The notes: generated by a model not told the origin, from the letters alone. A stretch of 64,000 nt of DNA from Eledone cirrhosa (GCA_964016885.1 OZ024740.1:52824001-52888000), one strand, 5' to 3'. Shown: positions 21,299-59,720, counted from the stretch's first letter. A program made the numbers and translations.

Positions 21299-24200
21299 AT
21301 GGATGTGTTAAGAGTAGGATGTTTGAATGCACGTGGCCTGGGCTCAACTTGGAAGCAAGCAAAGCTTCTAAATGACCTCAGGTCATGTAGTATAAATGTA
21401 ATGGTTATCTGTGAGACTCGAATCAGCGTCATGCGGCAGCTGGCCCCCACCTTCGATGACTTTGAGGTGCATGCATCTCTCTGTCAACCTGGAGGTGGGG
21501 GTGGGGTTGTCGTGCTGCTGCAAAAACACCTGGGTCTTGCCGTACAGGTTGTGCACTCGGACCCGGAGGGTCGTTTGTTGGTGCTAGACGTTGGCAGTAG
21601 TGAAAGTGCGGCCTTGAGACTGGTCGCCGTCTACTCCCCTTTCGGAGCTGAACGGCCCGACTTCTTCCAGCGTTTGGAGACTTTTCTGGGAACGTCGCGT
21701 TCCCTGCTTCTAGCGGGGGATTGGAATGACATCCTGGATGCACGTTGGGACTATGCAGGAGCATGTCCTAATAGAGGGGGGTGTAACAGCCTCAAGGGGT
21801 TACTCGACCGTTTTAACTTGGTCGATAGATATCGACTAGATTTTCCAACTGTGCCTACCTGGACTTGGAGAAACCACAGTGGTCAATCTAGATCGTACTT
21901 AGATAGATTCTTAGTTAGAAGTAAGGATAGGGACATATTAAGCTGTCCAGAAATGCGCACGGTTGGCTACACGGATCACAAATTAGTGACCTGCGTGGTC
22001 AATCTCGAGAAAACACATAGACAGGGTCCCGGTTACTGGAAACTTAATTTGTCTTTACCGGCAAAAGAGACTTACAGAAACCGGATTAGCAGATTAGTTA
22101 AGGAGAGGTTGACGGGTGCAATCGTCAACAACCGATGGTGGGCATCTCTCAAAAGAGAGATTAGAACAGAATCAATAAGTTATAGCAAGATGTTAGCTGC
22201 CAATAGGAATAGAAACGAGAAAGAATTAACAGGTAAATTAGAAGAGGCAATCAAGAGCGAAGATGTGGCCAGAGTGCTGGCATCGAGGACGGCCTTGAAC
22301 CAGTTTTTCGATGCAAAGCATGAAGGCTGCGTCATTCGAAGTAAAATACGTGCTCTAGGTAATGAGGGGGCCAAAGCCGTTGGATGGGCCCGCGTGACAG
22401 AAGCTAAAAGTGGAAATCGATCCACCATCCGGTCGTTGCAAGACGAAGATGGACGAGTGATCCGGGAGCCTAAGCAGATGTGCGAGGCCTTTCAAAAGCA
22501 CTTTGCCCGATTGTTCGGGGGAGGCGAGGGTCCGGGCCGGGGCGTGGATTTCGGTCCATACCTCGACGGCCTGCCGCGTCTCTCGAACAAAGAGGCAGAG
22601 TCCTGCGAGGGACCAATCTCGGCTGATGAGATCGGAGATGCGCTGAGCCAATGCAGCAGACGCAAATCTCCAGGTCTCGATGGTATACCTTACGAACTTT
22701 ATTTAGCAATGCCGGTCTTCTTCTCCGAACTCCTCGAAGCGGTCTACTGCAATTGGCAGCAGAACGGGAGAATTCCTTGTTCTGTAGCCAAGGGCGTAGT
22801 CACGCTGGTGAGGAAGGACGAGAACAAGGGGGATAGTATAAATAATTTTCGGCCCATAACCCTGCTAAACACAGAGTTAAAGATTTTGGCCAAGGTGTTA
22901 GCAAAGAGGTTGGCGCTTGTCGTGGGTGGCCTGGTGGGAGATGCGCAGACATGTGCTATCCCATCCAGGTCCATTCACGATAACCTCCACCTCATGCGAT
23001 ACATCATAGAGAGGGTTGGCAACAAACCCGGCTTCGGTGGGGCCCTGATCAACTTGGATCAGTCTAAGGCCTTCGATAGGGTCGACCATGGTTACCTGGA
23101 TGCGGTGCTAGCGGCGGCTGGGTTCGGTCCTGTTTTCAGAGGCTGGATCACTGCCCTACATAGCAACCACATCTGTTCTAGGATCAAGGTGAACGGCTAC
23201 CTTTCGAAGCCGTTCGAAATCACACGATCCATTCGACAGGGGTGCCCTCTCTCCTCCCTTCTGTACGTATTGACTCTCGAGCCTTTACTGAGGAAGTTGG
23301 AGTTGTTGCAGGGTATCCCCCTGGAACCAGGATTGAGCAAAGCGGTGTCGGCCTACGCCGATGACGTAACAGTAATGGTATCAACCGACTCGGAGATCGA
23401 GGCGATCGGTACCTTACTGGAGGAGTACGAAAGGTTGTCAGGAGCGAAACTGAACCGGGAAAAATCCATCGGGCTGCAACTCGGAACGTGGAGAGGCAGA
23501 CCGATGCCTCCTGACGGTGTCGTCGGACACTGGACGGAGGGCCCGGTAAAGTTGCTTGGGGTCTGGTTTGGACCGGACCTCCAGGTGGAAAAGAACTGGA
23601 ACGAGGTTACGAACAAGGTGTTTGCACTAACCCAGAAATGGGCCAAGTGTAAGCTGTCCCTAAAAGGCCGGGCGGAGGTGGCGAACATTTACATAGCGTC
23701 CGTCACTTACTACCGCCTGACTGTCGTGCCTTGCCCTAAGGAAACACTCACCACCATGGAACGCATGCTCTTCCAATTTCTTTGGAAGAAGCGTCCTCCT
23801 ATGGTGAGAAGATCCATCTGCTGCCAACAACCTTCGAAAGGAGGGCTGGGGATGCCGTGGTTGATGATGCGTAGGCACGCATTAAGGCTACGGCACCTAC
23901 AGGTATTCCTCACTGGTCAACCGGTGTGGGCTCCGTTCGTGAAACGAGCCTTTCCGAGACTCGTCTCACTCACCGAGCTACAGTCCTGGGTCAAGCAAAG
24001 ATCCGGAAAACTGGGAGACTGGCACACTGAGTGTGCTCAGGCGCTCAGGGCTCTCTGGCAAGCGGGCCGGGCCATCGGTGGAGAATCCACCTCATCATTC
24101 TATAGAGGGCTGGTGGCTAGCAGGGGCGATGACACCCTTGGAGAGTCGCTGGACATGGAGGAAGACGAACTGGCCAGCCTGTTCGGTAGGACTTTCGGCC

Positions 24201-24736
24201 CAGGACCAATGGACAACTTCCAGAAGTCACTGGCCTGGCAGTGCTACCGGGGGGCTCTACCCGTTCGAGAGAGGCTCTACAGACACGGGCGCCCGGGCAG
24301 GGATCCCTCAAAAAAGATTTGCCCTAGATGCGTGCGTCACGAAGAAACCGTGGCGCACGCATTGGTGCAATGTCCTGGCGTGGCTGATCTGTGGGGCTAC
24401 GCCGAACAACTGCTGTCGCGGGTGGCGCCGATTAAATTGACCGCCGAGTCCGTGATGACAATCAAACCGCCTCCCCTCTTCACAAAGGAAGCAAAGGCGG
24501 TTTTTCTGTGCGTAATAGCCATGTTGAAAGAGGTTGTTTGGTGGACACGATTGAAAGGTCTGAGGTCAGGCAACTTCCTCTCTGGCCATAGTCTGGTCTA
24601 CTTCTTCCGATATCACTTCGGAAGAAGGATAAGAATGGAGAGAGAGGTGCTTGGCCACAGGCAGTTTTATGAAAGGTGGGTGATAGTGGCGAGAATGGCT
24701 CGTGTAAATGGGCCTTCTCTGTATACCATCCTGTAG
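21299..24736 (+). CDS. LINE ORF2 protein: AP endonuclease, reverse transcriptase and C-terminal CCHC zinc finger (1145 aa)
   Basis: APE: GCLNARGL, ICETR, AGDWN, YLDRF, YTDH. GPGYWKLN. RT: KSPGLDG, RPITLLN, KAFDRV, RQGCPLS, YADD. Zinc finger: CPRC..EETVAHALVQC. No stops. Confidence 0.96.
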   Translation: MDVLRVGCLNARGLGSTWKQAKLLNDLRSCSINVMVICETRISVMRQLAPTFDDFEVHASLCQPGGGGGVVVLLQKHLGLAVQVVHSDPEGRLLVLDVGSSESAALRLVAVYSPFGAERPDFFQRLETFLGTSRSLLLAGDWNDILDARWDYAGACPNRGGCNSLKGLLDRFNLVDRYRLDFPTVPTWTWRNHSGQSRSYLDRFLVRSKDRDILSCPEMRTVGYTDHKLVTCVVNLEKTHRQGPGYWKLNLSLPAKETYRNRISRLVKERLTGAIVNNRWWASLKREIRTESISYSKMLAANRNRNEKELTGKLEEAIKSEDVARVLASRTALNQFFDAKHEGCVIRSKIRALGNEGAKAVGWARVTEAKSGNRSTIRSLQDEDGRVIREPKQMCEAFQKHFARLFGGGEGPGRGVDFGPYLDGLPRLSNKEAESCEGPISADEIGDALSQCSRRKSPGLDGIPYELYLAMPVFFSELLEAVYCNWQQNGRIPCSVAKGVVTLVRKDENKGDSINNFRPITLLNTELKILAKVLAKRLALVVGGLVGDAQTCAIPSRSIHDNLHLMRYIIERVGNKPGFGGALINLDQSKAFDRVDHGYLDAVLAAAGFGPVFRGWITALHSNHICSRIKVNGYLSKPFEITRSIRQGCPLSSLLYVLTLEPLLRKLELLQGIPLEPGLSKAVSAYADDVTVMVSTDSEIEAIGTLLEEYERLSGAKLNREKSIGLQLGTWRGRPMPPDGVVGHWTEGPVKLLGVWFGPDLQVEKNWNEVTNKVFALTQKWAKCKLSLKGRAEVANIYIASVTYYRLTVVPCPKETLTTMERMLFQFLWKKRPPMVRRSICCQQPSKGGLGMPWLMMRRHALRLRHLQVFLTGQPVWAPFVKRAFPRLVSLTELQSWVKQRSGKLGDWHTECAQALRALWQAGRAIGGESTSSFYRGLVASRGDDTLGESLDMEEDELASLFGRTFGPGPMDNFQKSLAWQCYRGALPVRERLYRHGRPGRDPSKKICPRCVRHEETVAHALVQCPGVADLWGYAEQLLSRVAPIKLTAESVMTIKPPPLFTKEAKAVFLCVIAMLKEVVWWTRLKGLRSGNFLSGHSLVYFFRYHFGRRIRMEREVLGHRQFYERWVIVARMARVNGPSLYTIL

Positions 24737-56833: not shown

Positions 56834-57247
56834 GAAGTTGTATTTAATTTGTTGGAACTCCGACAAACATAAATGTTTATAACTAATTTAGAGCACTCAA
56901 CAGCATACTCGAGTAAATATTCCATGATATTAAATAAATGGAAACTATATTTATAAAACCATATTTATTTTATTATATATATTTCAAGGGAAACCAAGAC
57001 ACCATTGGTGCGCTTTCATCAGATAAAATACAAAGTTTGTTTTATAAATAGAGACGTACCCATGAAAAACTATCCAGTGAATTTCCAACCGATAAGGTAT
57101 GTTTTTCATGGGTACGTCTCTAATTATGAAACAAACTTTGTATTTTATCTGATGAAAGCGCACCAATGGTGTCTTGGTTGCCCTTGAAATATATATAATA
57201 AAATAAATATGGTTTTATAAATATAGTTTCCATTTATTTAATATCAT

Positions 57248-57753: not shown

Positions 57754-57841
57754 ATTAAATGTTAGAGAAAACAATACCAAATTCTTGAATAAATATATCT
57801 AATTGCTTACAATTGTTTCAAAAATTATTGAGCACACTGAC

Positions 57842-57857
<16 letters not shown>

Positions 57858-57882
<25 letters not shown>

Positions 57883-58692
57883 AATTAATATATCTACCAA
57901 CATATGTATACAGATGCATACCTACGCTAGCAGATATATATGTTTTGTCTTAGTAACTTTGTAGTTCTATGCAGGGGAATGCAGAACAATTAAGCTTCCA
58001 GTGTCCCCGCAATGCCTGGTGGCTTAGCTGAGAATAGACTCCCTGATGACGTAAGGCTTCTCTACAGGTATTACATAACTGTATTTATCCCCTTACAGAA
58101 ACTAATTAGTTGGAGTGAAATTTTAGTAAGTAAGTCAATTTTCATAACTTTCTTATTTACGTCTTTCATATAATTGTTCTGCATTCCCCTGCATAGAACT
58201 ACAAAGTTACTAAGACAAAACATATATATCTGCTAGCGTAGGTATGCATCTGTATACATATGTCGGTAGATATATTAATTCTTTATATTCTTCTCCAAAT
58301 TATTTGTTGAGCAAAATTTGCCAAATTACTACTGTGACTGATAGTAGTGGCTAGGCTCTGTCTTAATAGCACCCCCACTCCAAGCTGGTTAACCTCAGTG
58401 TCACGTGATTAATTCTTTTGAATTTGCCACTTGACCAAGGAGGCAGCGAATTTTTCAGTGCTTAGAATCTAGCCCCGCTCGATTTTTTCGCTTTTTCCCA
58501 TCCACTGAATTATTGTTATGTAAGCTTCCATGTCCCCGCATTGCCTGGTGGCTTAGCTGAGAATAGACTCCCTGATGACATAAGGCTTCTCTACAGGTAT
58601 TACATAACTGTATTTATCCCCTTACAGAAAGTAATTAGTTGGAGTGAAATTTTAGTAAGTAAGTCAATTTTCATAACTTTCTTATTTACGTC

Positions 58693-58698
<6 letters not shown>
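57858..58698 (+). mobile_element. Family M retrozyme-like element: two hammerheads 529 nt apart (58038-58116, 58567-58645) plus an inverted 5' segment
   Basis: ACTCC-CTGATGA-CGTAAGG..CCTTACA-GAAA-CTAATTAG-TT-GGAGT. 57858-57990 is the reverse complement of 58170-58288. Confidence 0.83.
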
Positions 58699-59446
<748 letters not shown>

Positions 59447-59479: not shown

Positions 59480-59720
59480 TTTAATAAATAAACAGAGAAC
59501 AAAAAACAGAAAAATGTTGAGGCAGTACAAATGATATTGGTATTAGTTTCACGCTTGAAAGTGGGGGTGGGGGACGACGTTTCGGGCATAATCCCTTCAT
59601 CAGGAGAGCATAATCCCTTCATCAGGAGAAAAGTTGGTAGGAAGCGAGTTCCGAGGGTGTGTGGGGGAGTTGTGGAAAGACATTTAAGAAAAAAAGGCGG
59701 GGGAGGGGGGCATTTTTTTA
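59480..59720 (-). mobile_element. Family J copy, hammerhead at ~59570-59607 with a 21-bp core duplication
   Basis: Minus reads CTGATGA-AGGGATTATGCCC-GAAA-CGTC. GCATAATCCCTTCATCAGGAGA occurs twice. Confidence 0.75.

Follow-up and report, generated by a model that had tools for sequence, protein, structure and literature searches.

In a 64,000-nt stretch of the Eledone cirrhosa genome (GCA_964016885.1 OZ024740.1:52824001-52888000; hereafter the window, with positions counted from its first nucleotide), two direct repeats each carry a hammerhead-like ribozyme motif. An initial annotation of the region (57858-58698) had described it as a retrozyme-like, 529-nt unit between two tandem hammerheads, and had proposed that it gives rise to a linear or circular RNA replicon. 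The locus raises the question of what kind of element leaves such a structure in the genome, and how that element is copied. Our analyses show that the stretch is one slightly decayed insertion of a dispersed, non-coding mobile element. The family to which it belongs, built from the 529-nt unit, was most likely copied from RNA by the reverse transcriptase (RT) and endonuclease (EN) of a Penelope-like element (PLE) acting in trans, and its motif is predicted to self-cleave only when two copies pair.

Layout of the insertion

The layout was read from the window sequence between 57500 and 59200 together with the output of a repeat finder, and positions within the 529-nt unit were numbered from window position 57992 (unit position 1). 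The bulk of the insertion is a direct arm on the plus strand (57992-58701; 1.34 units) with the order R-A-B-R. R copy 1, a repeat resembling a pseudo-long terminal repeat (pseudo-LTR; 57992-58172, unit 1-181), is followed by segment A, or the "tail" (58173-58288, unit 182-297), which ends at an alternative 3′ terminus (...TTCTTTATAT), by the non-coding segment B (58289-58520, unit 298-529), which is conserved in other copies, and by R copy 2 (58521-58701, unit 1-181), all on the plus strand. The 5′ end of this arm lies at unit 1 and its 3′ end at unit 178-181, where it adjoins a right (TA)n tract (58698-58750). The two R repeats, ~180 nt each, were 97-98% alike when aligned. Their 171-nt core (58002-58172 and 58531-58701) was 98% identical at a spacing of 529, in agreement with the ~178-bp direct repeat originally placed at 57992-58169 and 58521-58698, for which 181 of 192 alignment columns, flanks included, were invariant. 

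Immediately upstream is a 5′-truncated, inverted arm on the minus strand (57875-57992), the reverse complement of unit 180-297 and hence of the tail. The repeat finder showed it to be 99% complementary to 58171-58288 over 118 nt, confirming the inverted 5′ segment that had been noted, and its 3′ end (unit 297) points outward into a left (TA)n tract (57846-57879) that adjoins the outer end. The boundary of the element is ambiguous here by ~5 nt and its start lies at about 57875-57880; the previously given start, 57858, falls inside the (TA)n run. The longest ATG-initiated open reading frame (ORF) in the unit is 53 amino acids, consistent with the earlier view that the DNA between the repeats is non-coding. 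Each R contains one hammerhead-like motif on the plus strand, intact in copy 1 (58035-58120) and carrying two damaging changes in copy 2 (58564-58649).

Copies elsewhere in the genome

A search of the 3.0-Gb genome with the 707-nt R-A-B-R stretch returned 2,528 candidate places. The 40 that were scored contained 86 matching pieces, many of them the full 707 nt at 92-98% identity, on many chromosomes. Because other copies match the full 707 nt at this identity, the spacer is part of the unit, kept together with its repeats, and is not unrelated flanking DNA, the outcome that would have refuted the initial annotation. An 82-nt piece of the unit gave 1,155 candidates, of which 40 were scored, all 100% identical, and a 25-mer across the motif's 3′ half had 8,625 exact matches in the genome compared with none for a reversed control. 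Two older subfamilies, 74-82% identical to the window unit, yielded 1,925 and 2,554 candidates, and both had the same architecture as the window family. The family thus comprises at least three subfamilies and is abundant, with thousands of copies.

The architecture of individual copies was examined at 40 distinct loci with 67 arms: 19 loci from the 707-nt search, 20 from the 82-nt search (overlapping loci dropped) and the window itself. These samples were not random, since one was ordered by how well its loci matched the 707-nt query and the other consisted of exact matches to the 82-nt piece. The R(1-181)-A(182-297)-B(298-529) order of the unit is repeated throughout the genome. The arms started at variable unit positions, as expected of 5′ truncation, and 38 of the 67 were at least one unit long, the longest being 1,071 nt (2.02 units); the two "tandem hammerheads" arise because arms often exceed one unit. 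In contrast to the 5′ ends, the 3′ ends were fixed in 61 of the 67 arms, at unit ~181 (...CGTCTTTCATATA) in 32 and at unit ~297 (...TTCTTTATAT) in 29, with the remaining 6 elsewhere. When (TA)n was scored as TA/AT steps making up 80% or more of the 20 nt that follow, it was present after 52 of the 61 canonical 3′ ends. At several unpaired arms, (TA)n was present on the 3′ flank and absent from the 5′ flank.

Two arms arranged head-to-head, with their 5′ ends inward and their 3′ ends outward, were found at 26 of the 40 loci. One 181 end was paired with one 297 end at 21 of these; like ends were never found together, and at the other 5 one end lay elsewhere (L003 at 120, L017 at 10, L018 at 6, L057 at 128, L063 at 21). 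Whenever both arms had canonical ends, then, one was 181 and the other 297 (21/21). The inverted arm ranged from 33 to >900 nt, and its junction with the direct arm differed by locus. Neighboring motifs were also mapped among the first 100 matches of the 25-mer: opposite-strand neighbors within 1.5 kb were divergent in 18 cases and convergent in one, 16 same-strand pairs were spaced 522-571 nt apart, and the longest same-strand run was three motifs. Two weaker patterns are not claimed. A preferred 5′ end at unit 1-15 was seen at 8 of 20 loci in the first, query-ranked sample and in only 2 of 32 arms in the second, and for a shared 5′ boundary of the longest arms, at about unit 262-276, there were too few cases.

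Strong 5′ truncation, partial tandems that form pseudo-LTRs and an inverted, 5′-truncated copy immediately upstream have been described as hallmarks of PLEs, as has a "tail," a 30-40 bp extension present at one end only (PMC8557442). PLE insertions are also biased toward microsatellites, with (TA)n being a preferred target of the Naiad clade (PMC8557442). By comparison with these descriptions, the combination found here, namely tandem copies, an inverted and truncated arm, fixed 3′ ends and (TA)n flanks, is a PLE integration signature, and segment A behaves as a PLE tail. The window copy itself, whose direct arm starts at unit 1, passes 529 and continues to 181, and whose inverted arm consists of the tail only, both ending in (TA)n, matches the textbook PLE layout. 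Of the original description, the retrozyme-like character of the locus is real; what had been taken as a unit between two tandem hammerheads is a single PLE-type insertion with a partial tandem, an inverted arm, fixed 3′ ends and (TA)n flanks. The further proposal of an RNA replicon, copied from RNA to RNA, gained no support. The layout is that of a dispersed retroelement insertion, and a PLE signature is not evidence of a local RNA replicon. DNA-mediated copying by an RT in trans is better supported than RNA-to-RNA replication.

The hammerhead-like motif

On the plus strand, which is also the sense strand as set by truncation polarity, the motif in each R reads in the order ACUCC-CUGAUGA-C-GUAAGG-(34 nt)-CCUUAC-A-GAAA-CUAAUUAG-UU|GGAGU. 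In motif 1, helix I is an open, 5-bp helix of ACTCC (58038-58042) with GGAGT (58112-58116); the same helix I strands were read in motif 2 at a shift of +529, as first annotated. The core box CTGATGA (58043-58049) is followed by an unpaired C (58050), by the 6 bp of helix IIa, GTAAGG (58051-58056) with CCTTAC (58091-58096), and by helix IIb (58061-58065 with 58080-58084). An unpaired A (58097) lies between 11.1 and G12, ahead of the core box GAAA (58098-58101) and CTAATTAG (58102-58109), and a perfect 10-nt palindrome, ACUAAUUAGU, spans 58101-58110. Helix III is tiny, with A-U, C-G and perhaps U-A. Cleavage is predicted after GTT, between 58111 and 58112, and in motif 2 between 58640 and 58641. 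Position 17 is therefore U (GUU), a non-G at the predicted cut site, and GUU is a cleavable hammerhead site. With an open helix I and a long helix II, the predicted layout is that of a type-I hammerhead.

Motif 2 differs from motif 1 by two damaging changes. A G>A at 58580, which lies at a CpG and was absent from the initial annotation, breaks the first pair of helix II, while the C>G that had been reported in the second copy, at the helix-III base, was found at 58631 (position 15.2), where it breaks the palindrome. A covariance model of the motif (R1) scored motif 1 at 112 bits and motif 2 at 100 bits, with non-standard pairs at both changes. In a dimer of the two, the one intact core would be that of motif 1, which would act on site 2, and for this reason the window locus is probably without efficient monomer release; judged from its sequence, this copy is unlikely to free the monomer efficiently. 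As a separate observation, the palindrome-breaking C>G at 15.2 recurs in a few copies of two subfamilies (L001 2073-2158, L015 2193-2277, L089 1550-1637 and others), and could have arisen by parallel mutation or gene conversion or mark a minor lineage of variants.

Conservation was assessed with 90 distinct motif variants from the three subfamilies, on which the hammerhead structure was imposed. Core columns were invariant or at least 90% conserved, and 95.3% of cells paired under the hammerhead structure compared with at most 46% in slid controls. Five helix-II pairs were changed on both sides (115 cells). In helix IIa, GUAAGG/CCUUAC was replaced by GCAAUG/CAUUGC and by GAAAGG/CCUUUC, and further double changes in helix II converted ACAG/CUGU to AUAG/CUAU and AUGG/CCAU. 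An additional compensatory variant, GUAUGG/CCAUAC, occurred in the motif of locus L041, and variation in helix I was limited to C>U wobble changes. In none of 500 shuffles was the share of paired cells, the number of double-change cells or the covariation score as high as that observed. In addition, CUGAUGA, GAAA, G10.1-C11.1, the non-G at position 17 and the 10-nt palindrome were kept in three subfamilies whose remaining sequence differs by 20-25%. The compensatory changes among subfamilies support helix II. In a 14-copy profile of unit 1-297, conservation was highest in a block that takes in the 3′ half of the motif and continues to the 181 terminus. Copies at loci L053-L082, 88-92% identical overall to the window unit, were 100% identical over this 82-nt stretch (motif 3′ half to 181 terminus), which suggests that constraint on the unit is strongest in this block, though the sample was chosen for exact matches.

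When two motif-1 RNAs were folded together, the lowest-energy structure had the topology of a double hammerhead, with helices I and III formed in trans, at -44.4 kcal/mol compared with 2 x -17.4 (-34.8) kcal/mol for two monomers. The 529-nt monomer had a folding z-score of -4.06, and none of 100 shuffles folded as well. We also observed a 76-nt unitig (58036-58111; runs X1 and X3, two of three sets of short contigs of unknown kind from one sample) that ends at the predicted cut. Contig ends cannot show RNA ends, and the unitig was not used as evidence.

Evidence against and alternative explanations

A number of results weigh against a PLE-driven family with a self-cleaving motif, and those that concern the motif and its cleavage are taken first. 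Rfam reported no hammerhead, either in the whole window at the gathering score or at E<=10 over 57800-58800, its only matches being chance, microRNA-like ones on (TA)n. The unpaired A between 11.1 and G12 and the 34-nt insertion in helix II are departures from the expected structure. Taken singly, the motif had no folding advantage over shuffles (z = -0.94), and in its lowest-energy fold CUGAU was paired with AUUAG and helix III was absent. Strictly intact motifs accounted for 54 of 121, under a rule that also fails one whole subfamily with a 4-bp helix I. As for covariation, helix III is invariant and hence uninformative, the compensatory changes reduce to a few events at the level of subfamilies, shared by descent, and relatedness can let sequences outscore shuffles even where no structure exists. 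Were cut, linear RNA a common template, arms would be expected to end at unit 120 or begin at 121. The predicted cut site showed no excess of element ends: ends followed by AT-rich sequence numbered two at unit 120 as opposed to three and four at 121 and 122, and none of the 67 arms started within unit 119-123. The single arm that ended at unit 120 (L003) probably did so by chance. Moreover, no arm exceeded 2.02 units among the 67 arms and no same-strand run exceeded three motifs among the first 100 matches, so that these samples contained no positive sign of long rolling-circle products. PLE-type minimal hammerheads are themselves reported to cleave poorly in vitro (PMC4209133). Because there is no cleavage footprint, the templates appear to have run through the cut site, whether as uncut multimers, as religated circles or by virtue of a motif that does not cut.

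The last of these is the alternative that survives best, and we give it a small but real chance. It supposes the same mobile element with a motif that no longer cuts, or never did, and in which the RNA hairpin or junction serves as a recognition or priming signal for the RT; the templates would then be linear, with no monomer or circle. The silence of Rfam, the deviations around the canonical core and the lack of enrichment of element ends at the predicted cut site agree with such a motif, and the concentration of conservation between the motif 3′ half and the 181 terminus is what would be expected of a 3′ recognition signal. The published account of PLE minimal hammerheads, besides reporting weak activity in vitro, leaves functions other than cleavage open (PMC4209133). 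Set against this, the core boxes, G10.1-C11.1, the non-G at position 17 and the palindrome have been kept across three subfamilies, and the lowest-energy dimer is exactly the double-hammerhead fold. Animal non-LTR retrozymes carry type-I hammerheads that act as dimers, and one active hammerhead of an amphibian (axolotl) retrozyme cleaves in spite of a mismatch that weakens the base of helix II, and does so more efficiently in dimeric constructs (PMC7229834). For the present family, self-cleavage and circular RNA are predictions.

The remaining contrary results concern the autonomous partner that a non-autonomous, PLE-driven family would need. PLEs are plentiful in this genome: there were 10,595 candidate places for GIY-YIG, and all of the 150 that were scored lay above the Pfam cut-off. 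Intact RT or EN ORFs are present among these PLEs, at least seven families were separable by C-terminal sequence (L021-L052), and several families end in (CA)n/(TA)n ~200 nt past the stop codon. Many of the families carry hammerhead-like motifs, a number of them with U.U or A.A where helix II begins at its base (e.g., CTGATGA-T-TTC...GAA-T-GAAAC). The partner was sought at first 12 and then 32 PLE loci out of the 10,595 candidate places. With blastn, the unit gave TA-rich chance matches to the 32 loci and one 84% copy in L041, which proved to be a separate insertion rather than sequence shared with the PLE. Similarly, an nhmmer search of the 32 loci with the 14-copy profile of unit 1-297 found no partner beyond the L041 copy, and a search of them with covariance model R1 found no autonomous partner that shares R. 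A resemblance of the 3′ end to the PLE family of L049/L050 did not hold up.

It is conceivable, at a low level of probability, that the family is instead a SINE-like element (short interspersed element) moved by a LINE (long interspersed element) and bearing a microsatellite 3′ tail, in which case the inverted arms would reflect twin priming and (TA)n would be a copied tail. The LINE ORF with endonuclease and RT domains in the window, the unpaired arms with (TA)n at the 3′ flank only and the lack of a partner at the 32 PLE loci are all compatible with this idea. Yet 26 of 40 loci were two-armed, 38 of 67 arms were at least one unit long, and the tail occurs at one end, which are PLE features (PMC8557442); a hammerhead in a terminal repeat is likewise typical of PLEs (PMC4209133), and the genome holds >10,000 GIY-YIG candidate places. 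A structure formed at the DNA level is barely credible. It could be a local satellite duplication, or a foldback or miniature inverted-repeat transposable element (MITE) that inserted at TA and has terminal inverted repeats of 118 nt, with the hammerhead present by chance. In the window, R copy 1 does lie between 118-nt inverted repeats with TA-rich DNA outside them. At other loci, however, the inverted arm varies from 33 to >900 nt and its length and junction differ every time, leaving no fixed terminal inverted repeats and ruling out a MITE or foldback DNA transposon; moreover, the copies are dispersed on many chromosomes and helix II co-varies.

Relation to known elements

Compared with described systems, the family fits among the animal non-LTR retrozymes, i.e., non-autonomous PLEs. 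Animal non-LTR retrozymes resemble it in having non-coding, low-GC units of a few hundred nucleotides, a type-I hammerhead, a weak, palindromic helix III and no LTR (PMC7229834); no LTR-type ends were found in the family, in which neither a primer-binding site (PBS) nor a polypurine tract (PPT) was searched for explicitly. Such retrozymes are thought to be PLE-dependent (PMC7229834; 10.64898/2026.07.22.740005), and a preprint regards them as non-autonomous PLE derivatives related to PLE pseudo-LTRs, with consensus lengths of 51-972 bp, a range that includes the 529-nt unit (Li, Clavereau & Pollet 2026; 10.64898/2026.07.22.740005). The unit is nonetheless longer than the 170-400 nt RNAs of animal retrozymes (Cervera & de la Pena 2020; PMC7229834), and arrays in the samples examined reached at most ~2 units and three motifs, in contrast to the long tandems of animal retrozymes (PMC7229834). 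Helix II also differs from that of the animal retrozymes in having a 34-nt co-varying extension and an unpaired C and A at its base. Expression as linear and circular monomer RNAs, a criterion of animal retrozymes, is for the present family a prediction, as is cleavage.

PLE hammerheads are characterized by a nucleotide that separates position 9 from 10.1, by G10.1-C11.1, by a helix II that is long, by a helix I that is short and open, and by a small helix III that is palindromic at 15.2-16.2 and in loop 3 (Cervera and de la Pena; PMC4209133). All of these features are present here, as C 58050, G 58051-C 58096, the 6-bp helix IIa plus IIb, the 5-bp helix I and the palindrome ACUAAUUAGU, and the unpaired A 58097 before G12 is a departure from that description (PMC4209133). 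In insertion layout, PLEs and this family have in common the pseudo-LTR, the inverted, 5′-truncated copy, the one-end tail and the microsatellite bias (Craig et al., 2021; PMC8557442). They differ in that autonomous PLEs have an ORF for RT/GIY-YIG, which this non-autonomous family lacks, and in that its tail is 116 nt compared with the published 30-40 bp (PMC8557442). Furthermore, the (TA)n preference was reported for Naiads, which lack canonical hammerheads, while this family has a hammerhead-like motif.

Satellite hammerheads of newt and axolotl are likewise type-I, with a minimal helix III and a palindromic loop, and are efficient only as dimers; they form long arrays of 330-350-bp repeats, with up to ~126,000 motifs, as opposed to the dispersed, one- to two-unit insertions with PLE-type ends seen here (PMC7229834). 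Plant LTR retrozymes are also non-autonomous and carry a hammerhead in each of two direct repeats, and the monomer between their two cut sites is proposed to circularize (PMC4918200). They have type-III hammerheads, true LTRs, PBS and PPT, 4-bp target-site duplications and a length of 600-1000 nt, in contrast to the type-I motif and PLE-type architecture of this family (PMC7229834). A plant-type LTR retrozyme was ruled out, as the open helix is helix I and the repeats come from copying of more than one unit with variable 5′ ends. The details that set the family apart are its 529-nt unit, very short arrays, 34-nt helix-II extension, 116-nt tail and two paired, alternative 3′ termini. A literature search by 14-mers of the motif gave no match; the supplementary files of papers were outside its scope, so the species or family could be listed there.

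A possible route of integration

The following sequence of events would account for the structures described above. The RT/EN of a PLE, acting in trans, would make a staggered break within (TA)n and thereby expose two DNA 3′ ends. Each of these could anneal to a short, UA-rich site in the RNA, either AUAUA at unit 177-181 or UAUAU at unit 293-297, and prime cDNA synthesis, and the two cDNAs would be joined in the middle to give head-to-head arms. It is suggested, at low confidence, that both primers sit on a single RNA, of which the 116-nt tail would form a 3′ flap, because the 181 end is strictly paired with the 297 end. The idea that a primer ending in T or in A could distinguish the 181 site from the 297 site was dropped, as both primers could anneal at both. 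As for the template, transcripts with two motifs are predicted to fold as a double hammerhead through the palindrome ACUAAUUAGU and to be cut after GUU, freeing a 529-nt monomer that a cellular ligase could circularize, as proposed for PLEs and retrozymes (PMC4209133; PMC7229834). The molecules copied would then be circles or uncut multimers and not linear monomers produced by cleavage.

We speculate, with considerable doubt, that the pairing of 181 and 297 ends, together with the window's inverted arm, which coincides with the 116-118-nt tail, is a genomic read-out of Penelope integration, in which both ends of one (TA)n break prime one RNA 116 nt apart, with one cDNA copying the tail and the other the body, and in which the RNA is a hammerhead-processed circle or multimer without a 3′ end of its own. 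If true, the paired ends would bear on the unsolved integration step of Penelope. Hammerhead-bearing, non-autonomous PLE derivatives are already known, and in that respect the find is ordinary and not a new kind of replicon. What makes it valuable is that the family is clean, young and very abundant, with >8,600 copies of the motif, a large number of them near-identical. In it every feature of PLE integration is legible to the single base: the fixed, alternative 3′ ends, the one-end tail, the setting in (TA)n and the head-to-head arms. Two questions become testable in Eledone cirrhosa as a result: how PLE RT and endonuclease build tandem and inverted insertions, and whether the terminal hammerhead is required, and which form of the RNA (cut linear, uncut multimer or circle) acts as template.

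Other features of the window

The window also contains a LINE-type retrotransposon with an open, 1,145-amino-acid frame on the plus strand (21299-24736) and Exo_endo_phos, RVT_1 and zf-RVT domains. The CTGATGA heptamer occurred 28 times in the window compared with an expectation of 7.4, a count that none of 100 shuffles attained, consistent with the presence of several hammerhead-bearing repeat families. Close to the insertion, at 58835-59326, is a perfect, 206-nt inverted repeat with an 80-nt spacer, the arms of which are 100% complementary and the right outer end of which adjoins (TA)n; a related, partial copy was found at 57012-57225. Its arms carry a CTGAGGA/CTGATGA...GAAAT-ATATAT motif like one located beside a PLE in locus L043 (near 6351), and it may be another head-to-head insertion, belonging to a different hammerhead-bearing family. 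Lastly, an exact, 22-nt tandem duplication (GCATAATCCCTTCATCAGGAGA x2) at 59586-59629 includes CTGATGA on the minus strand.

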